Source: Elusimicrobiota bacterium
Lineage (GTDB): Bacteria; Elusimicrobiota; Elusimicrobia; Elusimicrobiales; UBA9959
Length of the DNA: 64,000 nt
Direction: 5' to 3'
Assembly: GCA_016207645.1 (NCBI GenBank)
Contig: JACQPH010000101.1
Coordinates: forward strand, 18-64,017
The notes beneath the pieces were generated by a model. That model saw only the letters and a program-made list of their open reading frames with translations, was not told the origin of the DNA and made no database searches. The position numbers were made by a program, and so were the translations under genes. This document shows, in pieces, positions 126-21,952 of this stretch (within the stretch, counting starts at the first letter, position 1; every line of letters begins with the position of its first letter).

Positions 126-1511
126 ATGCGAGCGGAGCGCCCGGTCGCGCGCTTGCGGTTTTCCACGGCTAACAAGATGATACGAAAACTCGCGGCGGTC
201 CTGTTGTTTTCCTGGCCGGCCCTGCTGCCGCCGGCGGCGCGCTGCGCCTGGGAGAACATCCGTTACTCCGACGCCCCGCTGGCCGTGGTCTACGCCTCCA
301 CCGGCGCCTATGAAGTGGCCTATACCGCGGGGGAGGACTGCGCCAGCCCTTCCGAACTTGTCTCCTCCCCGGTTTCCGCCTGGTCGGGCTACCTTTCCCT
401 GGTGCCGGCCAATATGGTGAACCAGGGCGTCGTCGGCTTCGTCTCCACCTCCTCCGTGGCCCTGGACGGCGCGCTCTGGGGGAACCCGCCCGGCAACAGC
501 GTACAGCTCCTTTTCGGGGAGGACCTCGCGCCTTCGCTTTCCGCTCCGGCGGTGAACGTCACCAGGGTCTATGACAATACGGGCGGCGTGGTCAACTCCA
601 GCTGGGCGGTTACGTTCGGCTATTCCGGCCGGCAGCTGATCATCTCCCCCTCGGCCGACTGGCCCAAGGGCAGCGTCTTCTCGGTCTATATTTCCTCTTC
701 CATAGTGGATATAACCGGCTCTCCGGTCTCGGAGGCGGCCACGGTCTATTTCTCCGTGCTGATGGACTACCAGACGGACAATACCGCCGCCGCTTTCTCG
801 GACCGCCGGGTGCGCGTGGCCGTTCCGGCCAACGCTTATTCGCAGGATTTCTATCTCACCCTCTCCACCGACTCGGGCCGCCGGGAGGTGGCGGAGGCCA
901 ACGCCAGGCTGGCCGCCCTGCCGGGCGCGCCCGAGTTCCTCAATACCGTCGATGTGCGCCCTTACGATCCCGCCGGCAACCCGGTGCAGCCGGGCGCCCC
1001 CTGCGTGGTTACGCTGCCCTACCCGGACGACGACGGGAACGGGGTGATAGACGGCTCCGTCTCCAGGCTCAAGGCCTCGAACCTCGCGGTCTGGCACCTG
1101 GACGAGCAGCGGGGCCTCTGGGTGAAGCAGACCGGGGCCTCGCTGGACGCCTCTTCCAGGCTGGTGTCGCAGCCCGTCTCGCATTTCTCCAACTACGCGC
1201 TCCTGGCCCTGCCCGACGCCGACGTCACCCCGGTCTACGCCTTCCCGGTGCCTTTCAGGCCCAATGCCGGCAACGCGGCGAGGTACGGCAGCTGGAGCGA
1301 CCTGATCACTTTCACCAACCTGCCGGTACAGGGGAAGATACGGATCTACACCGTGACCGGGGCCCTTGTGCGCGAACTGGCCGTAACGCCGCCCTCGATG
1401 AAGTGGGACGTGAAGAACAAGGACGGGGAGCTGGTGGGCAGCGGCGTTTACCTGTGGGAAGTGACCTCCGGGAAGAACCGCAAGACCGGCAAGCTGGTGG
1501 TAATAAAGTAG
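126..1511 (+). CDS. Secreted Ig-like domain protein with C-terminal T9SS type A / FlgD-Ig-like sorting domain (start may be 177)
   Basis: Signal-peptide-like MIRKLAAVLLFSW; Big_5-like segment; C-terminus VYAFPVPFRP...IRIYTVTGALVREL...WDVKNKDGELVGSGVYLWEV...KTGKLVVIK. Confidence 0.75.
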   Translation: MRAERPVARLRFSTANKMIRKLAAVLLFSWPALLPPAARCAWENIRYSDAPLAVVYASTGAYEVAYTAGEDCASPSELVSSPVSAWSGYLSLVPANMVNQGVVGFVSTSSVALDGALWGNPPGNSVQLLFGEDLAPSLSAPAVNVTRVYDNTGGVVNSSWAVTFGYSGRQLIISPSADWPKGSVFSVYISSSIVDITGSPVSEAATVYFSVLMDYQTDNTAAAFSDRRVRVAVPANAYSQDFYLTLSTDSGRREVAEANARLAALPGAPEFLNTVDVRPYDPAGNPVQPGAPCVVTLPYPDDDGNGVIDGSVSRLKASNLAVWHLDEQRGLWVKQTGASLDASSRLVSQPVSHFSNYALLALPDADVTPVYAFPVPFRPNAGNAARYGSWSDLITFTNLPVQGKIRIYTVTGALVRELAVTPPSMKWDVKNKDGELVGSGVYLWEVTSGKNRKTGKLVVIK

Positions 1512-1523
1512 GGCCCGCTTATA

Positions 1524-2675
1524 ATGAAGAACAGGACCTTTCTGAAATTGATCGCGGCCGCCTGCTGCGCGCCGGCGCTCTTTCCCGCGGCCTCTTACGC
1601 CGGGGCCGGCAGGTCCGGCGGGGAATTCCTGCGCATCGTGCAGAGCCCCAGGGCCGTCGGCATGGGCGAGTCCGGCGCGGGAGCGCATGGCGACCTGCTG
1701 GGCGCCCTGGCCCTTAATCCCGCCGCCCTGGCCCGCTCCGGCTACAAGGAAACCGCTTTTACCTATAATTCCTGGCTCGAGGGGATAACCTCGCAGCAGG
1801 CCGCTTACGCCCACCCGCTGGCCGGCGGCAAAGGCGTGCTGGCCGCTTCGCTCAATATCCTGAGCGTCCCGTCCATAGACGGCTATAACAACGCCGGCGC
1901 GCCCGCCGGCGGCGTGGACGCCGGCGACCTGGCTTTCGGGGTCAGCTACGCGAGGCGGCTCGCCGGCCCCTGGGAGGACCTGCGCTCCGGGCTCTTCGCC
2001 GGCGGCTCGGTAAAATACGCGAGGGAGACGCTCGGGCCGGTCAAGGCCGGAGCGGCGCTCTTCGACGCCGGCGCCCTCTGGCTGAAAAGGCTGGGCAGCA
2101 GCATGCTGGGCCTGGGGCTTTCGGCGCAGTCGCTCGGCGGGGGTTTCAAGTTCGATTCCGTCGCCGAGAAGGCGCCCGCGGTGTACCGGGCCGGCGCTTC
2201 GTACATCATGGTGGTTTCCGGCGACCCGATAACGCTTTCCCTGGACTGGAAAAAACCCTGGGACTCCGGCGCCGCCGTCTGCGCCGGGGCCGAGTACCAG
2301 GCCTGGCGCGTTCTGTCGCTGCGGGCCGGCTATATCTCCGGGGAGGACCTGGGCGGCGGCCTGCGGCTGGGCGGCGGCGTGGCCATTAAACTGCTGCAGT
2401 TCGATTATTCGCTTTCTTCCTACGGCAAATTCGGCCCGGCCCACAGGTTCGGCCTGTCCTACAAATTCGACAAGCCGGTGGAAGTCACCAGATACCTGAC
2501 CTGGGACCAGGAGCAGGCCAGGCAGAAGACGGAGCGGGCCCGCCTCATGATCAGGGAAAGCCGCTATTACGACGCCGTCCTGGAGCTTAACGGGGCGCTC
2601 ATCCTGGACCCCGGCAACAAAGAGGCGCTGGAGCTCATGCGCAAGGCGCGGGGGCTGGTGGAGGTCTCTAAATAA
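1524..2675 (+). CDS. PorV/PorQ-family outer-membrane beta-barrel with C-terminal TPR-like extension
   Basis: FLRIVQSPRAVGMGE...NPAALA N-terminal motif of PorV/FadL-like barrels; LRAGY, FDYS, HRFGLSYKF strands; helical tail YYDAVLELNGALILDPGNKEA. Confidence 0.8.
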   Translation: MKNRTFLKLIAAACCAPALFPAASYAGAGRSGGEFLRIVQSPRAVGMGESGAGAHGDLLGALALNPAALARSGYKETAFTYNSWLEGITSQQAAYAHPLAGGKGVLAASLNILSVPSIDGYNNAGAPAGGVDAGDLAFGVSYARRLAGPWEDLRSGLFAGGSVKYARETLGPVKAGAALFDAGALWLKRLGSSMLGLGLSAQSLGGGFKFDSVAEKAPAVYRAGASYIMVVSGDPITLSLDWKKPWDSGAAVCAGAEYQAWRVLSLRAGYISGEDLGGGLRLGGGVAIKLLQFDYSLSSYGKFGPAHRFGLSYKFDKPVEVTRYLTWDQEQARQKTERARLMIRESRYYDAVLELNGALILDPGNKEALELMRKARGLVEVSK

Positions 2676-3523
2676 TGCTCCCGCTCGGGTTAGCGCTGGT
2701 CCTGGCCGCTCTCCAGCCCGCCGCCGCCCAGACCGCGGCGGGCGGGGGTGAACCCGGCGCGAAAGCCGCCAGGGCCGCGGTGGACGATTCCCGCGCCGGG
2801 ATGCTGAAGCTCATGGACCGGGTGATCGCCGATCCCTCCGACGAGCAGGCCCGGAGGGAACTGCGCGTGGCCGCGGGGCTGGCGGTGGAGAAGGAGCGGC
2901 TGGCCTTCGCCGCGGAGCGCGAAGAGCTCCTGGCCGGAGCGGGGCGGGAGAGGGGAAAGATAATGGCTATGCGCGCGGCCAGGAAAAAGCGGCAGGACAG
3001 CTGGGACAGGGATTTTTTGAAGGCCTGCGGGCTGGCCTCCGAGGCCCATACCGTGAAGGAAGCCGTGTCCGCCTATGAGAGCCTGCTGGAGACTTTTCCG
3101 GTCTACTCGGACAACAGGGCCTATCTGCTGGCTTCCGGGGCGAAGATAAAGGGCATCTTTTACAAGGTCATCAAGGAGATCTATCCGTACCTGCTGGCCG
3201 GGCGCGACTCGGTGGACGAACGCACTTTGGCGGCGCTGCAGTTCTCCCGGGTGGCCGCGATGCAGGAATACGGCGGTCACCCGGACACCACCGCCGCCGA
3301 GAAAGAGCTGAAGAAGGCGGAGCGGTTCAGGCGCCTGGAGCGGGAGCTGCTGCTGAAGCACGAGAACATCAAGACCGCGATGGACCTCTACGAGATAAAG
3401 CGCTACGCCGATTCGCTGAAGAATTTCGACCAGGCCCTGGCCTACGACAGGAATAACGAAGAGGCGCTGTTCTACCGGGCGCTGGCCAGGAAAAAAGCCG
3501 GCCTGCGGGAAGACGAGAGGTGA
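2675..3523 (+). CDS. Exported helical/TPR protein
   Basis: Signal peptide; C-terminal TPR (YADSLKNFDQALAYDRNNEEALFY); TAATG overlap with the upstream gene. Confidence 0.65.
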   Translation: MLPLGLALVLAALQPAAAQTAAGGGEPGAKAARAAVDDSRAGMLKLMDRVIADPSDEQARRELRVAAGLAVEKERLAFAAEREELLAGAGRERGKIMAMRAARKKRQDSWDRDFLKACGLASEAHTVKEAVSAYESLLETFPVYSDNRAYLLASGAKIKGIFYKVIKEIYPYLLAGRDSVDERTLAALQFSRVAAMQEYGGHPDTTAAEKELKKAERFRRLERELLLKHENIKTAMDLYEIKRYADSLKNFDQALAYDRNNEEALFYRALARKKAGLREDER

Positions 3524-3527
3524 GCTT

Positions 3528-6500
3528 GTGAAGATAAAACACGGACTTGCGGCCGCGGCCGCTCTGGCTTTCCTGTTCCTGGCGGGCGTTCAGACCTTCG
3601 CCGCCTCGCCCGCCCAGGTCAGCTACCAGGGCACGCTCAGGAAGAACGGCGTGCTTTTCAGCGGCACCGCCGCCATGGAGTTCCGCATTACCAACGCCGA
3701 CGGCTCCGCGGTCTATTGGGCTTCCGGGTCCACGGACGTGGTGGTCTCCACCGGTCTTTTCCGCTACGCTCTCGGCTCCCCCAACGAGGTCGATTTCGGC
3801 AATATCGTCTGGAAAGAGATCACCCCTTACGTGCAGATGAACCTGGACGGCGGCTGGCTGCCGCGCGAGCCGCTGTATACCTCCGTCTACTCGCTGCATT
3901 CCAGGACGGCCGAGTCCTCCACCGGGACTTTCACCGTCAACGGCGGCGACCTGAAGCTCGTTTCCGCCACCGGCAGCAAGGGCATTTATTTCCAGGACGG
4001 CACCGCGCAGTACAGCGCCCCCGGCTGGGTCGTCACCGGCGCTTACACTTCTTTCGCGGGAGGGGCCGGCGTCGGTACCCTGACCCCGGCCACCAGGCTG
4101 GACGTGAAGGGGGCCGCCGCCGACCCTTATATACAGTTCTGGCGCGACGAGAACGGGGTGGTGAAGGCCACCATGACCGCGGCCGGCCTGCTTTACGCCG
4201 ACGGCTCGCAGCTGAGCAACCTGCCGGCGGGGGCCGACAATATGGGGAACCATACCGCTACCCAGGCCCTGAGCATGGCCGCTTTCCCCGTAAATAACGC
4301 CGGGGCGATAACCGCCAACGGCCAGGTCACCACTTATTCCAGCGCCACGGTAGTTTCGGCTTTCGGCCTCGGCGCGCCCAGGGTCAGGCTGGCGGGCGGG
4401 GTAGAGGTGTCCTCCTACTCGGCCGGCGGCGTCTATATTTCCTCTAACGTGACCCTCGCTTCCGGGGGCAGATATTTCGGCGACGGCTCCAGGCTGACGG
4501 GTGTTAACGACAGCCTTGGCAGCCATATAGCTACCCAGACCCTGAACATGGCGGGCTACGAGATCTCCGGCGTCTCTACGATCACCGTTGCCGCGGCCCT
4601 GCGCTTCGACGCTAACGTGGCTGTCTCTTCCGCCGCCGGACTTTACAGCGGGATATATATTTCCACCAACGTGAACATAGCTCCCGGCGCCCGATATTAC
4701 GGCGACGGCTCGGGCCTGACCGGGATAGTCGGCGTGGACAACCTGGGAAACCACACCATGACGCAGGGCCTGGCCACCGGCCCGAACTGGATCTCCTACG
4801 ACGGCTCCCCCTCCGGGCTTAACCTGGACGCCCTGGGGAATATAGGCGTGAACCAGGCGGCGGGTTCCGCCAGCCTGGACGTGCGCGGCGCCGGCGGCAG
4901 CTATATACAGATCTGGCGCAACTCCTCCGGGGTCATCAGGGCCTCGATGACGGTCGCGGGCGCGTTCTACGCCGACGGCTCGCAGCTGCGCAATGTGCCG
5001 GCCGGCGGCACCGCCAACCAGGCGCTGAACATGGCTTCTTTCGATATCGCCAATGTTTCCACGGTCACGCTGAGTTCCGTGACCAGTTCCGGGATAGGGG
5101 TGGTGTTCAGTACCAATGTGCTGCTGATGAACGGGCGGCTGGGCGTCAATACCTCTCTTCCGCAGGAAAGCCTGGACGTGAACGGCAATTTCAAGAGTTC
5201 CAGCCTGTCGGGTTTCGGGAATCAATGCGTTTACGCCGATGATAACGGCAGGCTTCTCCTGTCCGGAAGCGGACTGTGCGGCAGCGCTTCCGGTTTGGAT
5301 AATCTGGGCAACCGGATCATGCTCGGCAATCTTATCACCGGCAGCAACTGGATCTCCTTCGACGGCAGCGCCGGCGGCCTGTCGGTGAACGTCAGCAGCA
5401 ATGTCGGCATAGGCGTCCTCTCGGCCGCGACGCGGCTGGACGTGCAGGGGCGGAGCGGGGACAGCTACGTGCAGATCTGGCGCGATTCCGCCGGGGTGAT
5501 AAAGGCTTCTATGACGGCCGCCGGCCTGCTCTACGCCGACGCTTCGCAGATGGTCAACCTGCCTTCAGGCGGGGACAGCCTCGGCGATCATACTTCCACG
5601 CAGACCCTTGATATGTCCGGTTTCCAGATAGTGAACGCGGGCTCGGTCACGGTCACCGCGGCCGCCGGAGTGGGCGCCGCCAGGCTGAGTCTCAATACGA
5701 ACGTGGAGATCTCTTCCGAGACCGATCCAGCGCTGGGCGCGGGCTTGCGCGTTTCCTCTAACGTGTATATAGTCGGTTTCTCTTCCGCGGCCAAATATTA
5801 CGGCGACGGCTCCGGCCTGACCGGTGTTATCAGCTCGCCCGACGGCCTGGGCAACCATACGGCCACGCAGGACCTGGCCATGACCTCCTTCGATATCACC
5901 GGCGTCTCCACTATTACGGTCAGTTCCGTCACCGGCACCGGCATAGGCGTAGTGTTCAGCACCAATGTGCTGATCATGAGCGGGAACCTGGGCGTGAACA
6001 AGGCTCTGCCGCAGGCGAGCCTGGACGTGAACGGGAATATAATGAGCTCCAGCCTTTCCGGCGCCGGGGATCAGTGCGTATATGCCGATAATACCGGCCG
6101 CCTGCTCCTGTCCGGGGTAGGGACTTGCGGAAGCGCGGCGGGGCTGGATAACCTGGGCAACCGGATCATGCTCGGCAATCTTATCACCGGCAGCAACTGG
6201 ATCTCTTTCGACGGCAGCAACGGCGGCCTGTCGGTGAATATCAGCAGCAATGTGGGCATCGGCATCCTGTCGGCCGCCACGCGGCTGGACGTGCAGGCGG
6301 CCGCGGGGGACATTTACGCGCAGATCTGGCGCAACTCCGCGGGGGTCATCCAGGCCTCGATGTCGGCCACCGGGGAGCTGTATGCGGACGCTTCCAGGAT
6401 GCGCAACCTGCCTTCAGGGGCGGACGACCTGGGCAGCCACACGGCCACGCAGGACCTGGACCTGGCCTCCAGCGATATAATCGGCGTTTCCACCATCACG

Positions 6501-9500
6501 GCGGGCTACCTGACCAGCGCCGGCCCCGGCGTGATCTTCAGCACCAATCTGCTGGTCATGGACGGCAGCCTGGGCGTGAGCACCCTGGTGCCGCAGGAAA
6601 AACTGCATGTCACGGGCAAGATACGCGCTTCCAGCCTGTCCGGCTCCGGCAACAGGTGCGTCCAGGCCAACGATTCCGGCGTGCTGGGGCTTTCCGCCGA
6701 CGCCTGCGGCCTGGCAGGGGCGGGCGGGGACAACCTGGGCGACTATACCATGACCTTCAACCTGCTGACCAACGGCAACTGGCTCTCGGGAGACGGCGGG
6801 AACGAGGGTATACAGATAGACTCGCTCGGGAACGTTTCCATCGGGGACTCCGCCAATAATGCCCGCCTCGACGTGCGCGGCGGCGCGCTCACTAATATCC
6901 AGGTATGGCGCGACGTGGCGGGGGTGACGCGGGCTTCCATAAGCAGCGGCGGCGGCCTGGCCGCCAGCAGCGCTACCGTCAACGGCCAGCTCACCGTTAA
7001 TTCCAGCGCCACCGTGACCGCGGCCCAGGGTCTGGGCTCGCCCAAGCTGAAGCTCTCCTCGAACGTGGAGATCTCCTCCGAGACCGCCGCCTCCTACGGC
7101 GGCGGCGTGCGCGTTTCCTCCAACGTGTACATAGTGGGCTATTCCTCGGCCGCCAGGTATTACGGCGACGGCTCCGCGCTGACCGGCCTGACCGGGCTGA
7201 ACGCCTCCAATATCAGCGCGGGTACGCTTTCCGACGCCAGGCTTTCCGCCAACGTGCCCCTGCTCGACGCGGTCAATACTTTCTCCAGCAGCCTCACGGT
7301 GACCGGCGCCGGCGGCGCCAGGCTCGCCCGTATCGGTTTCAACGACGCGGTGGAGTTCTCTTCCGCCGCGGCCGGCAGCTACGGCGGCGTGCAGTTCTCC
7401 ACCCATGTCTTTCTGCCGGCCGGCGCGAAGTATTACGGCGACGGCTCGCAGCTGACCGGCGTGAGCGGTTCCGACGACCTGGGGAACCATACCGCCACCC
7501 AGGACCTGGACCTGAACACCTTCAACCTGGTGAACGTGGCCTCCCTGACCGCCAGGGGCGCCGTGACCGCCTATTCCAGCGTTACCGTGGCCGGCGACCT
7601 CGGCCTGGGCGCCGCTTTGCGGTTCGACAATAATGTGGAACTCTCCTCCTCCACCGGGCTGAACCGGGGGATCCAGATCTCCACCAACGTCTACATAGTC
7701 GGCATCGCTTCCGCCGCGAAGTATTACGGCGACGGCTCCGGCCTCTACGGCGTGACCGGCGACAATATCATCGATACCCTCGCGGCCACGCTGACAGCCG
7801 GCTCCGACGCCGGCGGTTCCAGTATAACCAACCTGGGCTCGCTGACGGCCGGCGCCGATATAACCGCCGGCGGCTCCGTGGCCGCCAGCGGGGATGTAAC
7901 GGCTGCCGGGCATGTCACGGCCGGCGGCCCTCTCACCACCTATTCCAGTGCCACCGTCGCGGGGGCGCTGGGCCTTGGCGCGGCCAGGCTCCGTTTCAGC
8001 GCCGGCGTTGAGATCTCCTCCCAGACTTCCGCCGCGCTGGGCGGCGGCGTCGGCGTCTCCTCGAACGTGTACATAGTAGGTTTCTCTTCCGCCGCCAAAT
8101 ATTACGGCGACGGCTCTTCTCTCACCGGGGTCTCCGACGATCTGGGGAACCATACGGCCACGGCCGACCTGAACATGGCCTCGAACGATATCCTCTCGGT
8201 CTCCACCATTACCGTCGGGTACCTTTTCAGCCAGGGCGCCGGCGTGGCTTTCACCACCAATGCTTTTATCCTTGGCGGCCGGCTCGGCATCAATACGTCT
8301 TTGCCGCAGGAAAGTCTGGACGTGAACGGCAACATCATGAGCGCCAGCCTGTCGGGCTTCGGAGACCGGTGCGTGTATGCCGATACTACAGGTAAGCTCC
8401 AATTGGCCGGAGATGTATGCGGAACCGGCGCCGGGACTGATAATATGGGCAACCACACGATGACCCAGAATCTTAAAACCGGCGGCAACCTGATAACTTA
8501 TGGCCCCGGAGTCGGCAGCGGCCTGTCTATCAATATAAGCAGCAATGTCGGCATAGGCCTTTCTAACGCCGCGACCAGGCTGGACGCGCAGACGGGGCTG
8601 GGGGACCCTTATATGCAGTTCTGGCGCGACTCGGGCGGCACCATTATAGCTTCCATGTCGGCCACCGGCAGCCTCATGTCCTCGCGGTTCGTGGGCGACG
8701 GCTCCGGCCTGAGCAAGCTGCCGCCCCTGCCGGAGAACCTGATCACCAACGGCTTCTGGCTGTCCAATGACGGAGTTAACGGCGGCATTTACGTGAACGC
8801 CTCCAACAATGTCGGCGTCGGTACTCCTTTCCCCGGCGCCAGCCTGGACGTTAAGGCTTCCGGCGCTTACGCGCAGCTCTGGCGCGATTCCGGGGACCTG
8901 GCCGTGGCCACGATGACCGCGGAGGGCCTGTTCAGCGTCTCCTCCAACGTGTATATAGCCGGCTTCTCCTCGGCTTCCGTGTATTACGGCGCCGGCTCGG
9001 CCCTTACCGGCCTGAACGCTTCCAATATCGGCGCGGGGACGCTGGCTGACGCGCGGCTTTCCGCCAATGTGCCCCTGCTGGACGCCGCCAATACCTTCTC
9101 CAGCAGCATCACGGTGACCGGGGTTGCCGGCGCCAGGCTGGCCCGGATCGGTTTCAACGACGCGGCGGAGCTCTCTTCCGCGGCGGCCGGCAACTACGGC
9201 GGCGTGCAGTTCTCCACCAACGTCTTCCTGCCGGCGGGTGCGAAGTATTACGGGGACGGTTCCGCGCTGACCGGCATAAGCGGCCCCGATGATCTGGGCA
9301 ACCATATCGCAACCGCCGACTTGAACATGAATAACTTTAACCTGCTCAATGTAGGCGCCATAGCCCCCGATCCGGCGTCCAGCGTGACCGTGGTAGGGGT
9401 GCTGCAGTCGTTCGGGAGCGGTTATACGCAGATCTGGCGCAATTCGATAGGCGTCGCGGTGGCCTCGATGACGGACGCCGGCGTGCTTTACGCCGACGGC

Positions 9501-10469: not shown

Positions 10470-10476
10470 AAGGAAC

Positions 10477-11778: not shown

Positions 11779-11848
11779 GTAAAATCCTTTAGAAGCCGTC
11801 CGGTTGTTTTATATACTACTATTAATAACAGGGGTTGCCAAAATACCG

Positions 11849-13980: not shown

Positions 13981-14002
13981 GCGAGCCCTTACCGCCCTGA
14001 TT

Positions 14003-14011
14003 TGCTATAAT
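14003..14011 (+). promoter_or_regulatory. Extended -10 promoter (TGnTATAAT) upstream of the GH13 gene
   Basis: tgctataat 37 nt upstream of the ATG at 14049. Confidence 0.5.
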
Positions 14012-14048
14012 CGGGTCTGGGGAAAACCGTTCCAATAAAGGCAGGAAT

Positions 14049-15545: not shown

Positions 15546-15553
15546 AACCTCTC

Positions 15554-16282
15554 TTACGGCTCCCTCGCCAGCGTATAGGCCGCGACGGACCTGGCGCCGG
15601 CTTTTTTGAACTCGGAGGCGAGTTCTTCGAGAGTCGCGAGGGTGGTGGCTACGTCGTCCACGAGAAGGATGTTCCGGCCCTTCACCAGCTCGGGCTTTAT
15701 TATGGCGAAGGCGCCGGCGATGTTGGACCTTCTCTTTTCCTTCGAGAGGGTAGTCTGGCTTTTGGTGTTCCTGGTGCGGCCGGCCGCGCCTTCCAGGTGG
15801 AAAAGGCCGCAGGAGGGGGCCAGGGCGGCTGCCAGCAGCTCCGCCTGGTTGAAGCCGCGCTCGCGCCGCTTGGCCGGATGCAGCGGCACCGCTGCCGCGA
15901 AAGTGTAGGGCGCCAGCTCCGGGAAAGCGGGGAATGCGGAAGCCATCTTCTCCGCCAGGAAGGCCGCCAGGTCCTCGCGGGCCCGGTACTTGAAGGCGTG
16001 GACCAGGGAGCGCAGCTGCGGGTTGAAGACGAAAGCCGAGCGGGCCAGGGCCAGCGAGCGGGGGGCGCCGCCGCGGCAGTCCCGGCAGCTGCGCCCGCCG
16101 CTGTCCAGCGGCAGGCCGCAGGCTTCGCAGCGCAGGGCCGGGAGAGGCTCCAGACCCCCGCTGCAGGCCGGGCAGAGCGGGGCGTCGTCCAGGTAATGCA
16201 GGTCCAGGCCGCAATGCGCGCAGGTCGCGGGCAGAACGACATTTAAAAGATATTTCCCGATACTTCCCGGATCAAGATCCAT
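15554..16282 (-). CDS. comF: ComF family protein (double zinc ribbon + phosphoribosyltransferase)
   Basis: Four CxxC pairs; VPLH..RERGFNQ; LLVDDVATT. Confidence 0.85.
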   Translation of the reverse strand: MDLDPGSIGKYLLNVVLPATCAHCGLDLHYLDDAPLCPACSGGLEPLPALRCEACGLPLDSGGRSCRDCRGGAPRSLALARSAFVFNPQLRSLVHAFKYRAREDLAAFLAEKMASAFPAFPELAPYTFAAAVPLHPAKRRERGFNQAELLAAALAPSCGLFHLEGAAGRTRNTKSQTTLSKEKRRSNIAGAFAIIKPELVKGRNILLVDDVATTLATLEELASEFKKAGARSVAAYTLAREP

Positions 16283-16337
16283 AATCCCCCGCCCCCCTCT
16301 CTCCGCCGCGCTCTACCCTATACCCTCTACCCCGCTT

Positions 16338-19300
16338 TCAGAACTGGAAAGTCAGCGTGCTGCCGGCCTGGTAGGAGAGGTACTCCTCCTGCTTGAGGAA
16401 CTTATGCCAGAAGCGCTGCAGCCCGGCGTTGAAAGTGAGGCGCAGGTTCTTCGCCGCCTCGTAGTCGGCGCTGGTGTTGAGCGAGAAAAGCCTGTTGTTG
16501 TCGGCTATGGTGATGGGCGAGGATTTGATGGCGTAGCTGAGGGTGGTGGTCCAGACAATGCGGTTGGTGAAGAGTATGGTCTTCTTCATGAAGGGCAGCT
16601 TCAGCCCCTTGGGCAGCTGGAAGTCGGACTTGATCAGCAGGCTGGGGGTTATCGTCCTAGTATTGGCGGTCACCACGCCGAGCGCCGCCCGGGTCTTGTC
16701 GGAAACGTAGTCCGCCTTCGGGGTGAAGCGGAACTTCCTGTAATCGAAGGTGCCCTGCAGCGTGGCGTCGTTATGCGTGACGGCCTGCGTGCGCTGGTTG
16801 ACGCGCAGGTCCTTCTTCTCCGTCAGGCGCAGGTTGTAGCTGGCCGCGGTGTCCACCTTGTTGAGCAGCCTGAAGCGCAGGTCGGTCCCGTAGGTGCCGG
16901 AAGTGTCCAGCGAGACCGCCTTCACCTCGTTGGTGTTGCGCGAATACTTCAGGTTAATGGTGGCGCTGGTCGCCCAGCGGCGGGCCCGCACCAGGGTCTC
17001 GAGCTGCGAGAGGGAGAGTATCATGTCCGGGAAAGTGCGGTTGACGCTCTTCGAGATGGTCCCCGTGACCTCGGAGCGCTGCACCGAGTTGCTGAAATTG
17101 TTGGTCAGCGAAAGAGTGCTGAGCGGCGCCGCCGAGCCTTTGAGCGTGTAGCCCTCGAAAGGCTGCCAGCGCTGCGTGGAGCTTACGGTGTCGCGCAGCG
17201 TCACGGAATTGCGCTGGGCGAAGGGGCTGGCCGGCCTCATGGAGTCGCGCAGCCAGAGGCGGGACCTGGTGTCGTACTCCTTCTCGACGTTGGCCCAGGA
17301 GTCGCCGTCCTGGATCTGGTAGTTCGAGGAGAGCACCAGGGAGCGCAGGAGGCGGTTCCTGGGGGCCAGGTCGTTCATGTTGAGGGTAAGGCTCACGCCG
17401 CCCTGCGCGGTCCGGTTCACGCTCTTGATGCGGCCGGCCGGGAAGAGCTGCGAGGTCTGCGCCACCGTGACGGTGGTGACGTTGAGATTGTTGCTCTCTA
17501 TGGTGGTCACGGAATAGTTCACGGCCGGGTTCAGCCAGCGCGCGAACAGCAGGTTGGAATTGGCGTCCACGGTCTGCTGCAGGGACTTGTTGTAGTGCTC
17601 GGACCTCAGCGGGTCGGAGACCGGCGCGCGCTCTTCGCGGGCCGTCTGCAGCGAGTAACCGGGGTTGAGGGAGGAACCGTTCCAGGGGATGAAGGAGAAC
17701 TTGGCGCCGTAGGCGTCCGTGCGCTCCTTTGTTCTGAACAGGCTGTCCGCGACCAGCAGCTTGGAGGCGTCGTAATCCACCTTGCTGAGCCCGAGCGAAT
17801 AGTTCAGGCTGATGGAACGGGGCAGCACCGGCAGCGCGCCCGGCACCGAGTAGGACAGGTTGGCGGCGTAAAGGTTCCTGTCGTCCGTGCGGCTGAGCAG
17901 GCTGTAGTCCGTTATGCCTTTCGAATAGTTCAGGCCGATCGTGGGCAGGGCCTTTATATTGAGGCTGCCGGAGGCCGCGCCGTCGAATTTCTTCACGCGC
18001 CCCTGCTGCAGGGAGTTCACCAGGTTGTTCGAACCGGTGGTAAGCGTGTTCGGCGTCACGGTTATCTGGCGCGCGGCCGTGACGTTCACCGGGAAGAAGG
18101 ACAGCCGGGTGATATTGAGGTAGCCGGTGTTCTGCTCGTTGTCCTGGTTGGCTATGGCGGTGACCGGAGTCTGGAAGCTGCGGTCCATGAAGCGGTGCTT
18201 GCCGCCGAAGCTGAACCAGCCCGGGATCTCGAAGACGCCCTCCACCTTGCGGGCGCTGCCTGTGCGCGTGAGCGGGTCGGCCACGTGCAGCTCGTTGAAA
18301 TAGACCGTGCCGGCGTGCCCGCTCCCGTCCGTGGCCTCCAGGCCGACGATGAACTGCGGCACCTGCTGCAGGCTGGGTGTGCCCCTGGAGGAGATCTCCA
18401 CGCCCTGGGTAGACCGCACCCAGAAGTCGGGTATCTTGTCCCCGCCCGGGGTGTCCTCCTGGCCTATGGTGATAAGCTTCCAGCCGGTGAAGTCGAGCGG
18501 CACCGAGGCCTTGAAGTAATTATTGACGTCGCCGGACTTGACGTAGAAGTTAACCCCGCTCTGCGCCCCGCTCTCGCTCTTGACCAGGAAGCGGACCTTC
18601 TCGTGCTGGGAAACGTCTATGGCCGTGCTGAACTTGCGGTAGACGTGGACCGTGGAGGAGGAATAGATGTTCTCGTAGTTCAGGGACAGGGTCTGCTCCG
18701 AGAGCGTGCCTGAATTGCTCTTCTGCTTCTGCTCGGAGGCCGAGCCGTAGAGGTCGTTGTAGACTATGGTCGCTTCGCCGCCCGCCTCGTGGATGGGCGT
18801 GTAGCCGGGGTTGTCGACGTTGTTCACCGCTATGGCCTGGATGGAGCCGGTGTTGGTGCTCGACTGCACCGTCCAGGTGTTGCCCACGGCGGAGATGCGC
18901 GCGAATTTGACCACGCCGGAGTTGGACCCTCCCGGCGACTTCTTCAGCGAGATGCGGACCTGCTTCACGGCGTTCCACTTGAAGGTGTCGGTGGACGTTA
19001 TGGCCAGCGGCAGGTAAAGGGTATGCCAGCCGTTGAAGTTTATCTGGTTCTTTTCGGTCCCCGAGTCGTTATTGTCCCTGAACTTGGAGCCGTTCACGTA
19101 GCCGAAGCTGCCGCCGGTGAAATCCTGCGCGTCCAGGCGGCCGTTCTTGTTCAGGTCCTCCGAGTCCAGCCGCCCGTTGCCGGCGCCGTAGCGCTTCTCG
19201 CTGGCGCCCACCTTGTAAAGCCAGCCGATATCCTCGGTGCTGGAGACCTGCTGGTCGCAGTTCAGGTCCTCGCTCTTCGGCGCGGCCGTCAGCACCAGGC

Positions 19301-21683
19301 CGGAGGCGCAGGTGAAGTTCTGCCCGCCGGTATTGTCGGCGTCCTCGTTGATCTGGCCGAGGTGGATATTGAATAAAGGCCCGGCGGCGCCGGTCGAGCC
19401 GTGGACCACCAGTTCCAGCACGTTCTTCTGCGAGAAATCCAGGCCGGTGGCGGAAAGCGGGTAGACTATGGAGATCTCCTGCGAGGTGGTGAAGTCGTAG
19501 CTTACCGACAGCACCTGCTGGGTGCCTTCGGAAGCGGAGGCGGGGTTTATCTCGCTGATCTTTACGTTCTCGTTGTACCAGTCCTGCGGCAGCGCCAGCG
19601 GGTCGGCCGGCCCCGCCGTGGGGTTGGCCGCTATGAACCAGAAATTCTTGTCCATGGACGGGGAATCTTCCTGCTTCACCCCTTCCATATTGTCTATCAG
19701 GGCGTTCTCGTTCAGATTCGGGTTCAGGCGGCTCTGTGCCGCCTCCGCCCCGAGAGAGGCTTTCAGGCCCAGCAGGTTCAGGCCTTTCAGCTGCGTGTCG
19801 CCCTCGTAGACCATCATGCTGTTGGTGAGGTCCGTGATATTGGGCACCGTATTGGCCTTGATGCCGCCCTGGTACAGCAGGGTGGAGCCGAGCGAGAAAT
19901 GGCTGCCGAAATCGTAGGAGACCCGGCCGCCTACCAGGGACTGGTTGCCCACGCCGCCGAAGGGGGAGACCTCGTAGACTATCTCTATCTTGGAGTCCTG
20001 GCCCACGCGCTCCGGGTAGTAGAAAGTTATGAAGCCGGAGTCGTAATCGATGAAGTATTCCTCGTTGCGGCCCAGCTTCTTGCCGTCCACGCGCACCACC
20101 TCGGACTGCAGCACGATGCTCGGCTCCAGCAGGAAGGTCTTGAACCGGTAGGAATACTCCACGCGGAGCACGCGCTTGGAGCTCGGCGCGGCGGAGTAGA
20201 TCTGCGGATCCGGGCTGGTGGCCGGCTCGCCGTCGAGCGTGAAGGGCTGCTTGAGCTGGAAGATGCCCTGTTCGAAATCCACCTCGATGGTGTCCGGGTA
20301 TTTCGGCATGTTGTTGGTAATGGTGGGCAGGACCTCGGTGCGGTTGAGGTCCTGCACCTTCAGTATGAAGTTGCCGTTGCCGTTGTCGCGCACGATATTG
20401 GACTGCCCTATGGAATAATAGGTCTTCAGTTCGCGCTTATGGGAGACCTGCTGCGCCGCCAGGGCCGTGTCGGAGGAGAGCGCGATATCGCTGGGCGTCT
20501 TTATTATGGCCGGTACCGCGAGCGTCGCCGCCGTGTCCAGCGTGGACGTGGAGCTGTTCTGCGACAGCTGGGTGCCGCCGGCGTTCTGGAAGTCGATGAT
20601 CACCACTTCCTGCGGGCTGAGCGTACGGTTGAAGGTCACGAGACCCTTGGAGTAGTCCATCACGTAGTCGATGCCGGGGCTCAGGAGCTGGAAGCGCCCG
20701 GTATAGGTGGAGGTCTGCACGGCCAGGTCCTTGCCGGTCAGCGCGAAGACCGTCACGCCGTCCACCTGGGCCAGGGTCTGCTGGTCTATGTAGACGCGCT
20801 CGGTGCCGGATTTGACGGGCAGGCGCGCCGTGTTGCCGAAGGTCACGTCGTAATACTTGCGGCGCAGGTAATTGGTGTCGAGGATGTCCACGCCCTGCGA
20901 CTGGGTGTTGCCGGTGAACTGCCTGGTCTTGGTCTGGCCCTTGGTGCGCGAGCCCACGAAGGTCATCTTGAGGCGGTTGGTCTTCAGGTCCGCCCTGATG
21001 CCGAACAGCTGCTTGTTGTAGGAGACGAACTCGGTGGCGGGCAGCGAGAGGTCTATGTCGCCGAAGGAGACGTTCTGCACCACCTCGCTGGGGTCGCCCT
21101 GGTAGACCACGGAGATGTCCTGCTTGTCCAGCTTGGTGTCGTCGTAGTCGACGTTGACCGTGATCTTCTGGCCGACCTTGCCCTGCATGCGCACCTGCAT
21201 CTGCTGGGTGATCTCGAAGAGGCTGAGGCTGCGCGCCCTGGTGGCGGTGGTCTGCTCGTTCAGGAATTTCTTGCCGCTGTAGCTGAGGGCTATCACCTTG
21301 CGGCCGGTCACGGAGAGGCTGGTGCCGGATTCGCGGAACTCCACCTGCTGCTCCGGGGCGGCCGGCTCCTCGGTCGGGAGCGTGGCCGGCTGCGGGGGGA
21401 GGAGCTCTTCGGATTTGAAGCGGCCGGTCTCCACGGCCTCCCGCGCGGAATTCCAGGAGTCCCGGCTGTAGGAAAAAGGCAGCTCGCCGGAAAAGTCGCC
21501 GGGCTCTCCGGTCTCCGCGGCGGTGGAAACCCCGGGGCTCGAGAGGATCGCGCCCGGGTCCTCCCTTTCCAGCAGCAGGAAGCGGCCCCCCGACGGCAAG
21601 GGCGCGTCGAAATCCTCGGCGCGCAGGGGCGCGGCGCAGGCCAGGGCCGTGAGGAGCAGGATAGTCGTTGCTTTCGCGTTCAC
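16338..21683 (-). CDS. sprA: SprA/Sov-like giant outer-membrane translocon (T9SS)
   Basis: QQMQVRMQGKVGQKITVNVDYDDT, FGDIDLSLP, QLFGIRADL, YFIDYDSGFITF, IDNMEG, SEDLNKNGRLD, YFNELHV, FQT motifs recalled from SprA; alternating beta strands; terminal TLTFQF beta-signal. Confidence 0.7.
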   Translation of the reverse strand: MNAKATTILLLTALACAAPLRAEDFDAPLPSGGRFLLLEREDPGAILSSPGVSTAAETGEPGDFSGELPFSYSRDSWNSAREAVETGRFKSEELLPPQPATLPTEEPAAPEQQVEFRESGTSLSVTGRKVIALSYSGKKFLNEQTTATRARSLSLFEITQQMQVRMQGKVGQKITVNVDYDDTKLDKQDISVVYQGDPSEVVQNVSFGDIDLSLPATEFVSYNKQLFGIRADLKTNRLKMTFVGSRTKGQTKTRQFTGNTQSQGVDILDTNYLRRKYYDVTFGNTARLPVKSGTERVYIDQQTLAQVDGVTVFALTGKDLAVQTSTYTGRFQLLSPGIDYVMDYSKGLVTFNRTLSPQEVVIIDFQNAGGTQLSQNSSTSTLDTAATLAVPAIIKTPSDIALSSDTALAAQQVSHKRELKTYYSIGQSNIVRDNGNGNFILKVQDLNRTEVLPTITNNMPKYPDTIEVDFEQGIFQLKQPFTLDGEPATSPDPQIYSAAPSSKRVLRVEYSYRFKTFLLEPSIVLQSEVVRVDGKKLGRNEEYFIDYDSGFITFYYPERVGQDSKIEIVYEVSPFGGVGNQSLVGGRVSYDFGSHFSLGSTLLYQGGIKANTVPNITDLTNSMMVYEGDTQLKGLNLLGLKASLGAEAAQSRLNPNLNENALIDNMEGVKQEDSPSMDKNFWFIAANPTAGPADPLALPQDWYNENVKISEINPASASEGTQQVLSVSYDFTTSQEISIVYPLSATGLDFSQKNVLELVVHGSTGAAGPLFNIHLGQINEDADNTGGQNFTCASGLVLTAAPKSEDLNCDQQVSSTEDIGWLYKVGASEKRYGAGNGRLDSEDLNKNGRLDAQDFTGGSFGYVNGSKFRDNNDSGTEKNQINFNGWHTLYLPLAITSTDTFKWNAVKQVRISLKKSPGGSNSGVVKFARISAVGNTWTVQSSTNTGSIQAIAVNNVDNPGYTPIHEAGGEATIVYNDLYGSASEQKQKSNSGTLSEQTLSLNYENIYSSSTVHVYRKFSTAIDVSQHEKVRFLVKSESGAQSGVNFYVKSGDVNNYFKASVPLDFTGWKLITIGQEDTPGGDKIPDFWVRSTQGVEISSRGTPSLQQVPQFIVGLEATDGSGHAGTVYFNELHVADPLTRTGSARKVEGVFEIPGWFSFGGKHRFMDRSFQTPVTAIANQDNEQNTGYLNITRLSFFPVNVTAARQITVTPNTLTTGSNNLVNSLQQGRVKKFDGAASGSLNIKALPTIGLNYSKGITDYSLLSRTDDRNLYAANLSYSVPGALPVLPRSISLNYSLGLSKVDYDASKLLVADSLFRTKERTDAYGAKFSFIPWNGSSLNPGYSLQTAREERAPVSDPLRSEHYNKSLQQTVDANSNLLFARWLNPAVNYSVTTIESNNLNVTTVTVAQTSQLFPAGRIKSVNRTAQGGVSLTLNMNDLAPRNRLLRSLVLSSNYQIQDGDSWANVEKEYDTRSRLWLRDSMRPASPFAQRNSVTLRDTVSSTQRWQPFEGYTLKGSAAPLSTLSLTNNFSNSVQRSEVTGTISKSVNRTFPDMILSLSQLETLVRARRWATSATINLKYSRNTNEVKAVSLDTSGTYGTDLRFRLLNKVDTAASYNLRLTEKKDLRVNQRTQAVTHNDATLQGTFDYRKFRFTPKADYVSDKTRAALGVVTANTRTITPSLLIKSDFQLPKGLKLPFMKKTILFTNRIVWTTTLSYAIKSSPITIADNNRLFSLNTSADYEAAKNLRLTFNAGLQRFWHKFLKQEEYLSYQAGSTLTFQF

Positions 21684-21696
21684 ATTGTATAGAAAC

Positions 21697-21858
21697 GTAA
21701 CTGCTCAGGTCGCTATAGGGAGTTCGGGTTGGCCGGGGTTTTGCCCCGCGAACCCCGGAAGTGGAAACCCTTGCGTCGGTTTCCCCCCGTAGCGGGGCCC
21801 CCCTTCCGCAAGGGGTTCGAGAAAAAAAACCCCCGCCAACCCTCCACTACCTGTACAC
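21697..21858 (-). repeat. Dispersed palindromic element, copy 2 (inverted; one terminal repeat eroded)
   Basis: Near reverse complement of 54665-54829; lies between the divergent sprA-like gene and lptF. Confidence 0.9.
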
Positions 21859-21952
21859 AAAACCACAGAGCCGGCCCGATCTCCCGGGCAGGCCAAATAA
21901 CGCCGTCGTGAAAAATTTCCACGGCGCCGCCGATATATAATAGAATAAATAA

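Follow-up and report, generated by a model that had tools for sequence, protein, structure and literature searches.

Type IX secretion (T9SS) is placed in the Bacteroidota or the FCB superphylum by two reviews (PMC11205867, PMC10994853), which also regard the GldLM motor as essential and the release of the carrier from SprA as an energy-requiring step. Extraction of the carrier–substrate complex from SprA costs energy in F. johnsoniae (PMC10994853). Both this species and P. gingivalis have PorP/SprF carriers specific to substrates with type-B C-terminal sorting domains (CTDs), with adjacent cargo and carrier genes, one carrier for one or few cargoes, and the carrier acting as surface anchor (PMC12618676 and PMC9143113). 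Type-A tails in Bacteroidota all use a single PorV. In the attachment complex of Porphyromonas gingivalis, which contains the pairs PorZ–PorQ and PorU–PorV, a CTD protein sits on a PorV/PorQ-type barrel through its uncleaved CTD.

Among the papers examined from full-text searches (PMC7031533, PMC12204202 and PMC8542988), none describes such a system in Elusimicrobia or Elusimicrobiota. Here we analyze a 64 000-nt stretch of DNA (the window) from an Elusimicrobiota metagenome-assembled genome of 167 contigs and 2.8 Mb, estimated to be 81% complete with 1.4% contamination. A preliminary description of the sequence had proposed a divergent or minimal T9SS-like exporter, and this proposal is supported by the SprA homology and fold, the carriers and the CTDs reported below, together with the lack of any detected canonical gldLMN. 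Its further suggestion of a different energizer goes beyond the data, in which the known motor simply failed to appear. The window probably holds parts of a stripped-down T9SS relative found throughout the Elusimicrobiota, with one carrier per cargo and with neither motor nor sortase.

A shortened relative of SprA

The gene at window positions 16338..21683 on the minus strand encodes a putative translocon, a giant outer-membrane barrel of 1781 amino acids with a signal peptide and the C-terminus ...TLTFQF. It matches the SprA model TIGR04189 in three stretches (136 bits, E 8.1e-40), below the 200-bit equivalog cut-off, and has no match to Pfam SprA_N (PF14349) at E ≤ 0.01, so that it stays under both curated SprA/Sov thresholds. 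Single-sequence phmmer searches of the PDB with this protein and with the PorV-like protein found no match, and a family profile was needed. With the profile of the SprA-like family (A1), the only PDB matches are F. johnsoniae SprA (6h3i and 6h3j; E 1.2e-18), in the collinear stretches 151–278/160–288, 525–604/700–779, 986–1066/1313–1403 and 1090–1188/1465–1564 (profile/SprA). A further profile (A3) picks up Bacteroidetes and Gemmatimonadaceae proteins annotated as ‘cell surface protein SprA’, with intermediates of 2000–2165 amino acids. The ESM Atlas returned only clusters of the protein's own family, in which 12–20% of members carry SprA_N. In NCBI, the SprA-like proteins are named ‘hypothetical’.

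We folded the protein as two halves with AF2 and used residues 100–1199 and 1120–1781 for Foldseek searches. The N-terminal model has a pLDDT of 75.9, and the C-terminal model, with about 27 long strands, one of 86.1. SprA chains take ranks 1–4 with both segments (E 6.5e-45 to 2.4e-30 for residues 100–1199 and 3.8e-11 to 7.2e-9 for residues 1120–1781). In VIA-align comparisons, residues 154–1199 map to SprA 168–1578 (Z 16.8–17.9) and residues 1227–1781 to SprA 1631–2401 (Z 16.3, rmsd 6.6 Å), although for this second part SprA and TonB-dependent transporters are told apart only by rmsd and not by Z (16.3 versus 17.2). Long strands sum to roughly 35–37 over both half models, a rough estimate of our own to be set beside a 36-strand barrel; in the halves, no closed barrel, lateral gate or cap could be seen as such. 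Each half is nevertheless predicted to fold like SprA, in keeping with a giant barrel with a cap.

The 1781-aa protein is thus a shortened but genuine SprA relative, and its collinearity with the F. johnsoniae protein begins near residue 154 and continues to the C-terminal end, which agrees with the preliminary reading of a SprA-like barrel shorter than SprA itself (1781 versus 2403 amino acids). The loss of about 620 residues is spread over both halves, the aligned spans being 1046 versus 1411 and 555 versus 771 residues.

The SprA-like gene is present as a single copy in the genome. Of 151 genomes surveyed across the phylum, 141 carry such a gene, as do 60 of the 62 genera; the proteins are always about 1730–1950 amino acids long, and in none of the 151 genomes is the TIGR04189 cut-off reached. 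Every named homologue carries an Elusimicrobia name, and the 80 closest loci include 73 titled Elusimicrobia, -ota, -ales, -aceae or Elusimicrobium and seven titled only ‘bacterium’. The organism, for which an Elusimicrobiota lineage had been called probable, is therefore a member of this phylum and lies outside the FCB group; it is not an FCB bacterium with a canonical gldKLMN set.

A CTD protein and the neighbouring PorV/PorQ-family barrel

At 126..1511 on the plus strand, the window encodes a cargo or adaptor protein of 461 amino acids with a Big_5 Ig-like domain (25.1 bits), ending in GVYLWEVTSGKNRKTGKLVVIK; the start of its signal peptide is more likely at an internal Met near nt 177. The full protein scores 26.2 bits on the type-A CTD model TIGR04183 (cut-off 23) and 17.1 bits on Pfam Por_Secre_tail (PF18962), below the cut-off of 27, and its tail aligns with the final stretch of the PorZ model, about 90 positions long (E 6e-10). 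The type-A-like CTD covers residues 375–461 (nt 1248..1508, plus strand) and ends three residues before the stop; taken in isolation, it scores 29.0 bits on TIGR04183 and 38.7 bits on the PorZ tail, with no type-B match. A Sec-exported protein thus terminates in a type-A CTD, in line with the preliminary description.

The next gene, at 1524..2675 on the plus strand, encodes a 383-aa PorV/PorQ-family barrel of the 14-strand type, a putative dedicated carrier or anchor. Its score of 112.5 bits on NF033709 (cut-off 90) places it in the PorV/PorQ family and bears out its earlier reading as PorV-like, while the equivalog scores, 71 for PorQ (NF033711, cut-off 220) and 38.4 for PorV (NF033710, cut-off 250), are too low for an orthologue of either. 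It has 90 orthologues, some of which NCBI names ‘PorV/PorQ family protein [Elusimicrobiota]’. The barrel had also been credited with a periplasmic TPR tail. Residues ∼316–383 (nt 2469–2672) do form a periplasmic helical extension of about 68 residues with a TPR-like consensus, conserved in the family alignment (A5), but calling it TPR was an overstatement: Pfam TPR has no match on the barrel, and the matches sit in a separate gene. This gene (2675..3523, plus strand; GC3 0.86) overlaps the stop of the PorV-like gene by 1 nt and encodes an exported 282-aa TPR protein (TPR_11 20.7 bits and TPR_2 16.7 bits, both below curated cut-offs).

Co-folding of the window's barrel with its CTD gave an ipSAE of 0.87, compared with 0.00 for the best control. 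Among solved complexes, 116 of 157 attain this mark, compared with two of 215 mismatched pairs. The pLDDT of the partner does not fall below 72, and at least 76% of the contacts are common to the runs. The model supports CTD–barrel binding, with a predicted binding mode like that of the F. johnsoniae translocon (6H3I, 6H3J, 8GL6 and 8GL8). Because solved PorV–CTD complexes exist (8gl6), the co-fold is to be taken as likeness and not as proof of binding.

Putative dedicated carriers across the genome and the phylum

A genome-wide count found a CTD tail in 19 of 2132 ORFs; 13 ORFs are positive for TIGR04183. The genome encodes 18 PorV-like barrels, and for 12 of them the gene immediately upstream, on the same strand and at a distance of -4 to 77 nt, encodes a CTD-tailed protein; given the number of CTD-tailed ORFs, only about 0.16 such pairs would be expected by chance. 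Six of the 18 PorV-like genes and six of the 13 TIGR04183-positive ORFs are unpaired. When the best PorV-like locus was taken from each of 30 genomes, a CTD gene was found upstream in 15, with none detectable in the other half. Provision of each cargo with its own carrier barrel is the main organizing principle, and one that the earlier reading had missed.

The classes of tail and barrel also correspond, which, like the gene pairing, is a new observation: a type-A-like tail goes with a PorV/PorQ-like barrel, and a type-B-like tail with a long-tailed PorP-like one. All nine type-A/PorZ-like tails precede barrels scoring 107.8–177.1 bits on NF033709. All three type-B-leaning tails (TIGR04131 24.4–38.4 bits) lie beside barrels that score 55.5–59.5 bits on NF033709 and 27.4–41.4 bits on PorP/SprF and that bear long tails. 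TPR matches are present on the two complete PorP-like barrels; the extension of the third, cut by a contig end, has none. Tails in the genome score highest against the PorZ tail (up to 62.9 bits) and also match that of PorU, and the barrels score higher for PorQ than for PorV. The cargoes include two peptidases, one of type M4 and one of type S8, and adhesin-like giants in which fn3, Kelch and beta-helix domains occur.

This arrangement resembles the type-B/PorP–SprF systems in its adjacent cargo and carrier genes, in having a carrier for one or few cargoes and in the probable anchoring role of that carrier, and three of the pairs join a type-B-leaning tail to a PorP/SprF-matching barrel. Unlike Bacteroidota, however, the one-to-one rule here extends to type-A-like tails (nine pairs), and, unlike PorP/SprF, the PorP-like barrels still score on the PorV/PorQ model and have long periplasmic tails. 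PorV-family genes are found in 40 of 41 genomes, with one to three copies in family f2 and up to 39–40 in others, so that the 18 carriers here, and up to ∼40 elsewhere in the phylum, contrast with the one general PorV that serves type-A cargo in F. johnsoniae. The seating of a CTD protein on a PorV/PorQ-type barrel recalls PorZ–PorQ and PorU–PorV, although retention of the CTD is in our case only presumed, PorZ and PorU bodies were not found, and the cargoes are adhesin-like giants and peptidases. This strict correspondence of classes yields many natural pairs for the study of carrier specificity. Together, the pore, carriers and tagged cargo also give a means of predicting the surface proteins of a phylum about which little is known, here adhesin-like giants and M4 and S8 proteases.

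Searches for motor, ring and sortase

Curated model searches found no gldK, gldL, gldM or gldN in the window, as had been noted before, and no GldL, GldM or GldN anywhere in the 81%-complete genome. The GldK model, run on this genome only, matched two short frames (279 and 319 amino acids) at no more than 58.2 bits; we rejected them as GldK, being far below the cut-off of 350 in a genome with no GldL/M/N. Within the phylum, GldM was matched in one of 81 genomes (E 0.005, 15.3 bits, with a stop inside) and GldL in four of 61, all weakly (best 24.7 bits versus a cut-off of 68.3), while GldN was matched in none of 61. The PorU model NF033707 has matches in 27 of 41 genomes, none above its 420-bit cut-off, and those listed cover almost only model positions ∼860–1095, its CTD; the exceptions reaching the PorU body score 52.3 bits (genome G004) and 30.5 bits (G010). 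PorZ matches in the proteins scanned are confined to the last ∼90 model positions. Unlike the F. johnsoniae system, the phylum thus shows SprA-like proteins, PorV-family carriers and secretion tails with no convincing match to the GldL/PorL–GldM/PorM motor, the ring protein GldN/PorN or the PorU sortase; the same holds for the ring partner GldK/PorK in this genome and for the body of PorZ in the proteins scanned. The Gld and PorU models are Bacteroidota-trained, and the 14 control genomes, none of them a positive control for the T9SS, gave no match; one of these, Bacteroides thetaiotaomicron, gave no SprA or Gld match.

We considered MotA, MotB and FliG-like modules as a substitute energizer. 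The genome has three, with no FlhA, and on one contig (C150) the gene order is TPR-tailed PorP-like barrel, HAMP kinase, FliG-like protein. FliG_C is found in 18 of 61 genomes, and in none of the 22 from family f2 or the 19 from family f12. Both of these families retain PorV-like genes as well as the SprA-like gene, which is present in 44 of 45 genomes of f2 and 35 of 44 of f12, and therefore the module cannot be the general energizer.

A proposed export route and its alternatives

We propose that Sec-exported CTD proteins would cross the outer membrane through a single shortened SprA-type barrel, the 1781-aa protein serving as the pore. Each cargo would pass to a PorV/PorQ- or PorP-like barrel of its own, the product of the next gene downstream, and this barrel would grip the CTD. 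This carrier probably keeps the CTD uncleaved and attached to its cargo, and would therefore double as the surface anchor. Since neither a GldL/M motor nor the ring protein GldN nor a PorU sortase could be detected, the cargo would have to leave the pore spontaneously, with binding or folding as the drive, or with power from another source, and a motor may not be needed. Given the energy requirement of carrier release in F. johnsoniae, a motor-less system would need a different release step.

More tentatively, the SprA pore, carrier barrel and CTD tag may form a module older and wider than the Bacteroidota machine, of which the Elusimicrobiota would have a version without the GldLM-type motor, hub or sortase. 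A private carrier would then pull the cargo from the pore and remain as its permanent anchor. Binding and folding would meet the cost, unless some lineages use an unrelated stator–rotor module coupled via the periplasmic TPR tails of the carriers. A whole phylum outside the FCB group keeps pore, carriers and tagged cargo with no detectable motor, ring or sortase, and the Elusimicrobiota thus provide a minimal system, made by nature, in which to ask why the T9SS needs its motor. It is also an evolutionary clue, either to a core that came first, with motor and attachment complex added later, or to their loss.

The strongest alternative, though an unlikely one, is a conventional T9SS in which the energy chain (a GldL/M-like motor, a ring or hub and perhaps a sortase) has diverged too far for the models or been replaced by non-homologous parts. 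Since the SprA-like protein itself falls below the curated cut-off in all 151 genomes, its partners may do so too, and the Gld models were run without a T9SS-positive control genome. The energy-dependence of carrier release in F. johnsoniae (PMC10994853) speaks for some motor, and the MotA/MotB plus FliG-like modules, one of them two genes from a TPR-tailed PorP-like barrel, are candidate replacement parts. Against divergence, local GldL/M/N HMMs gave no weak-but-consistent matches in closed, single-contig genomes. Replacement by these modules is countered by the absence of FliG_C from f2 and f12, and FliG-type rotors are cytoplasmic, without reach to the outer membrane.

It is improbable that the SprA-like barrel is not the exit pore and instead has another envelope role, such as lipopolysaccharide or outer-membrane biogenesis, with the cargo–barrel pairs acting alone or by another route. 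This reading draws on the genomic surroundings. The genes conserved next to the SprA-like gene are lptFG and comF, not those for cargo or carriers: among 80 related loci, comF is a neighbour in 54, lptF in 52 and lptG in 50, with a PorV-like gene within 10 kb in only two. In the window, these conserved neighbours, which we treat as context only, are a downstream ComF-like phosphoribosyltransferase gene (15554..16282, minus strand; DZR_2 and Pribosyltran domains) and the divergent lptF and lptG (21953..24147, plus strand; LptF_LptG 208 and 213 bits). The preliminary description had grouped the SprA-like, PorV-like and CTD genes within 22 kb; all three are where it placed them, but they do not form a single cluster, as a tRNA methyltransferase gene and PMT_2-like, GH13-like and ComF-like genes lie between the CTD/PorV-like unit and the SprA-like unit. 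By simple arithmetic, with 18 PorV-like genes in 2.8 Mb, the chance of finding one within 14 kb is about one in six, and the closeness seen here is incidental and not conserved.

Distribution bears on the question from both sides. Two genomes (G013 and G042) have PorV-like matches and no SprA-like match, and family f2 keeps the SprA-like gene, yet PorU-model CTD matches occur in only two of 13 f2 genomes. On the other hand, f2 genomes do have CTD-cargo/PorV-like pairs (loci L114, L115, L116 and L118), and one genome (G022) appears to have lost both components together, with a SprA-like remnant containing two stop codons and no PorV-like match. In both homology and fold, the protein follows SprA from end to end, the cap region included. 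Folded multi-domain proteins would not fit through the narrow bore of a 14-strand FadL-type barrel, which argues against export of such cargo by the carriers alone.

Contamination or recent transfer from an FCB-group bacterium, which would make the locus uninformative on Elusimicrobiota, could be suspected in so fragmented an assembly, but is already effectively refuted by the phylum-wide occurrence of the gene at a consistent length and always below the Bacteroidota cut-off, its syntenic flanks, a GC3 matching the rest of the contig, and closest homologues (80–87% identity) that are all Elusimicrobia.

Other features of the window

Rfam searches of the window and six related loci gave no match at the gathering score, and upstream of the SprA-like gene and of the TPR-tailed barrel on contig C150 no match, and so no c-di-GMP or other riboswitch, appeared even at E ≤ 1. 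Two long ORFs on the minus strand, of 418 amino acids (21713–22969; GC3 0.62) and 741 amino acids (13989–16214; GC3 0.58), were rejected as shadow frames; the three key genes have a GC3 of 0.82–0.91, the coding signature of the genome, compared with 0.53–0.62 in shadow ORFs. Downstream of the 282-aa TPR protein, a gene at 3528..10469 on the plus strand encodes a giant repetitive exported protein of 2313 amino acids without a CTD, which matches no Pfam or NCBIfam family. By phmmer it is related to ORFs on contigs C152, C122, C105, C13 and C150, forming a fibre-like family. The third gene after the TPR-tailed barrel on C152 belongs to it and does not encode a truncated FliG-like protein. Five of the six members of this giant-fibre family lie within three genes of a CTD-protein gene.

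Two gene units and a giant relative of SprA

The window is contig C74 of a 2.8-Mb MAG of 167 contigs (completeness 81.2%, contamination 1.4%) with a G+C content of 63%. Real genes and shadow frames were told apart by GC3, which is 0.82–0.92 in the former and 0.53–0.62 in the latter. By this measure the genes of the 22-kb span (126–21683) in the preliminary description are real, and they form two unrelated units. The first, on the forward strand, encodes an exported 461-aa protein that combines a Big_5 Ig-like domain with a C-terminal sorting domain (CTD; 126–1511), a 383-aa barrel (1524–2675), an exported 282-aa TPR protein (2675–3523) and a repetitive exported protein of 2313 aa without a family (3528–10469). 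The second, on the reverse strand, consists of the gene for the 1781-aa SprA-like giant (16338–21683) and a ComF-like gene directly after it (15554–16282), with lptF and lptG divergent from the giant's gene. Genes for a TrmA-like methyltransferase, a PMT_2-like protein, a 317-aa unknown and a GH13-like protein separate the two units. Opposite-strand ORFs of 418 and 741 aa were rejected as shadow frames by GC3, and the divergent spacer of 270 nt that separates the SprA-like gene from lptF (21684–21952) gave no match to Rfam, even at E ≤ 1, and thus shows no c-di-GMP riboswitch.

The giant, described as SprA-like from its sequence, is indeed a genuine relative of SprA. NCBIfam TIGR04189 (SprA/Sov) matches it in three stretches (E = 8.1e-40), with 136 bits against an equivalog cut-off of 200, and Pfam SprA_N does not match. 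As a single-sequence query the giant finds nothing in the PDB; a profile built from 24 members of its family finds Flavobacterium johnsoniae SprA alone (E = 1.2e-18), in collinear pieces (giant residues 151–278, 525–604, 986–1066 and 1090–1188 to SprA 160–288, 700–779, 1313–1403 and 1465–1564). Among longer proteins, a profile of giant residues 100–1199 gives 68 matches, which include proteins named ‘cell surface protein SprA’ by their sources (Bacteroidetes, Terrimonas, Reichenbachiella, Gemmatimonadaceae) and unnamed intermediates of 2018–2165 aa (E = 1e-121 to 1e-53).

Owing to a 1200-residue limit, the giant was folded as two AlphaFold2 models, residues 100–1199 (pLDDT 75.9) and 1120–1781 (pLDDT 86.1, about 27 long strands). 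Four SprA chains top the Foldseek PDB ranking for both halves. For the N-terminal part they score E = 6.5e-45 to 2.4e-30, with the next match at 6e-7; for the C-terminal part they score 3.8e-11 to 7.2e-9 (TMq about 0.5), ahead of TonB-dependent transporters at 1e-6 (TMq 0.2–0.3). VIA-align places giant residues 154–1199 onto SprA 168–1578 (Z 16.8–17.9, 796–891 residues aligned) and 1227–1781 onto 1631–2401 (Z 16.3, rmsd 6.6 Å, 411 aligned), the latter Z being non-discriminating alone as TonB-dependent transporters tie it (17.2, but with an rmsd of 13.7 Å). By our count the two half models hold about 35–37 strands, which is compatible with a closed 36-strand barrel and no more. The protein has a signal peptide, and its last residue is aromatic, as is usual for outer-membrane barrels. 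Compared with SprA (2403 aa) it is 620 residues shorter, the loss being distributed over both halves.

The suspected Elusimicrobiota lineage is confirmed by the names of homologues and of related loci. Among the best 120 of 307 matches (E ≤ 1e-5), named homologues are throughout ‘hypothetical protein’ entries from Elusimicrobia, Elusimicrobiota or Elusimicrobiales MAGs. Relatives are encoded in 310 genome stretches; of the best 80 loci, 73 are titled Elusimicrobia/-ota/-ales/-aceae or Elusimicrobium sp. and seven just ‘bacterium’. Across the sampled phylum the gene is present in 141 of 151 genomes (129 of 137 of high quality; 60 of 62 genera), with open frames of about 1730–1950 aa, none of the 151 genomes scoring above the curated cut-off. 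Five of the ten genomes without a match were searched again with a profile of the C-terminal part, which recovered a fragment at a contig edge (G085) and a remnant with two stop codons (G022), and nothing in G013, G042 or G141. The gene is thus phylum-wide and vertically kept, a distribution that excludes contamination or recent transfer as its source.

One putative carrier barrel per cargo

The barrel at 1524–2675 scores 112.5 bits with the PorV/PorQ family model NF033709 (cut-off 90) and passes neither equivalog. In an approximate proteome of 2132 ORFs, phmmer finds 13 barrels of this type and jackhmmer 18, the number also given by a genome search with NF033709. Immediately upstream of 12 of the 18, on the same strand and with a gap of –4 to 77 nt, lies a gene with a CTD-like tail; because the 2132 ORFs hold 19 C-terminal CTDs (local CTD model), chance alone would give about 0.16 such adjacencies. 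Seen from the cargo side, 15 TIGR04183 matches correspond to 13 ORFs (two have none in the filtered set), and seven of these are directly followed by a PorV-like gene. NF033709 matches 40 of 41 phylum genomes, 28 above cut-off, with 1–3 copies per genome in family f2 and at least 39–40 in three genomes. A CTD-ending frame lies directly upstream in 15 of the 30 best-scoring PorV-like loci (one per genome), four from f2. The organising principle is that each cargo has a carrier of its own.

The pairs fall into two classes that follow the same logic as in Bacteroidota T9SS. Nine tails match the type-A model or the tails of PorZ (up to 62.9 bits) or PorU, without a type-B match at E ≤ 0.01, and their barrels score 107.8–177.1 bits with NF033709 and higher with the PorQ than with the PorV model. 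Three tails, on contigs C119, C152 and C150, lean to type B (24.4–38.4 bits, above their type-A score). Their barrels reach just 55.5–59.5 bits with NF033709 and 27.4–41.4 bits with PorP/SprF, the C152 barrel scoring 32.6 with Pfam PF11751, above its cut-off. All three have long C-terminal tails, with TPR matches in the C152 and C150 barrels; in the C119 barrel, which is cut short where the contig stops, the extension gave no TPR match. The tail on C83 was matched by no CTD model. Cargo domains include fn3, Kelch propellers, beta-helix, CarboxypepD_reg, M4 peptidase and S8 subtilase.

Co-folding of the window's barrel (residues 27–383) with the neighbouring CTD (375–461) gave 0.87 against 0.00 for the best control (partner pLDDT at least 72; at least 76% of contacts common to runs). 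Of 157 solved complexes 116 attained this mark, as did 2 of 215 mismatched pairs. Since PorV–CTD complexes are already solved (8gl6), this shows likeness to the known binding mode and is not proof; the binding itself is predicted.

Several further barrels in this genome were observed. The PorV-like barrel at C53:22477–23853 has a CsgG/TolB_N/LpoB-like domain at its C-terminus. Pfam UPF0164, a family described as Treponema-specific, matches several paralogues, suggesting that the same barrel family reaches spirochaetes. At C160:120–2048, a 642-aa protein without a family follows a CTD cargo; as its ending (...TRYNYSF) resembles that of an outer-membrane barrel, it may be another, unrecognised carrier type. 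At C152:1336–2832 and C150:15816–17147, a HAMP histidine kinase comes after each TPR-tailed PorP-like barrel; the two kinases are paralogous (blastp E = 3e-26), a hint that these type-B-like pairs may belong to sensory modules.

Motor, ring and sortase

The reported absence of gldKLMN from the window extends to the genome: curated models find no GldL, GldM or GldN, and the GldK model matches only two short frames (279 and 319 aa; best 58 bits, cut-off 350). In high-quality phylum genomes, GldM is matched in 1 of 81 (15.3 bits, with a stop inside the frame), GldL in 4 of 61 (at most 24.7 bits, cut-off 68.3) and GldN in none of 61. The PorU model matches 27 of 41 genomes, almost wholly over its last ~230 positions, which are PorU's own CTD; its body is weakly matched in two (G004, 52.3 bits; G010, 30.5 bits). 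PorZ matches in the proteins scanned are confined to the PorZ tail. These negatives mean ‘not found with curated models’, as the control set holds no genome of known T9SS; its sole Bacteroidota member, B. thetaiotaomicron, has no SprA or Gld match.

A motor that has diverged or been replaced is an unlikely reading, and one candidate for a replacement was considered. This genome has five MotA-family genes, three of which lie in modules of MotA, MotB and a 480–540-aa FliG_C protein (C150:17257–25711, C107:279–4799 and C92:140–4681), with FliG_M in two, FliF_C in the C107 module and MotB twice on C92; the search for FlhA found none. The C150 module lies two genes from a TPR-tailed PorP-like barrel, with the gene for a HAMP histidine kinase between those for the barrel and the FliG-like protein. 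FliG_C occurs in 18 of 61 phylum genomes and in none of 22 from f2 or 19 from f12; as these families keep pore and carriers without it, the module was rejected as a general energiser. A role for the SprA-like barrel other than as cargo pore would suit its conserved neighbourhood (lptF at 52, lptG at 50 and comF at 54 of the best 80 of 310 loci) and the near absence of carrier genes beside it (2 of the same 80), but is quite improbable given the likeness to SprA along the full length and the joint loss of SprA-like and PorV-like genes in G022.

Comparison with known systems and proposed mode of action

We favour a cargo pore with cognate carriers that functions in the manner of the T9SS outer-membrane core. 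The canonical T9SS, as defined by motor, ring and attachment complex, does not include it, because these parts were looked for and not found. Cargo, which has signal peptides, would be exported by Sec, and the cognate barrel would recognise its CTD at the SprA-like pore. With no sortase found and tails resembling those of PorZ and PorU, the two CTD proteins known to remain on PorQ and PorV in P. gingivalis, the CTD would be retained on the cargo and the barrel would serve as anchor. The carrier–cargo complex would leave the pore sideways, as PMC10994853 describes for F. johnsoniae, where extraction of the complex from SprA is the energy-requiring step.

Cognate carriers are known for type-B cargo in Bacteroidota, according to PMC12618676 and PMC9143113, and some of the present barrels are already labelled ‘PorV/PorQ family protein’ by NCBI. 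What is new is that the rule also covers type-A-like cargo, that motor and sortase are apparently lacking, and that the phylum is another one. In their passages on type IX secretion or this phylum, PMC7031533, PMC12204202 and PMC8542988 describe no such system.

Fibre-like giants and an assembly repeat

YYGDGS..LTG and DNLGNHTATQ units recur in the 2313-aa protein (3528–10469, forward strand), which lacks a CTD and matches neither Pfam nor NCBIfam families. It is part of a fibre-like family sharing an N-terminal ‘..YQG.L’ motif after the signal peptide, with further members in this genome at C152:1–1339, C105:1–8725, C13:7965–9176 and C150:8223–11576 and on C122. A small CTD-protein gene lies at most three genes away in five of the six members, and the sixth takes up a whole contig of 2.9 kb; the small CTD protein and its barrel may form an export or anchoring platform for a tagless fibre. 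At the right end of C92 (about nt 4780–4839), a 31-mer is found again in about 27 other contigs, where its position is often terminal; this dispersed repeat has probably broken up the assembly.
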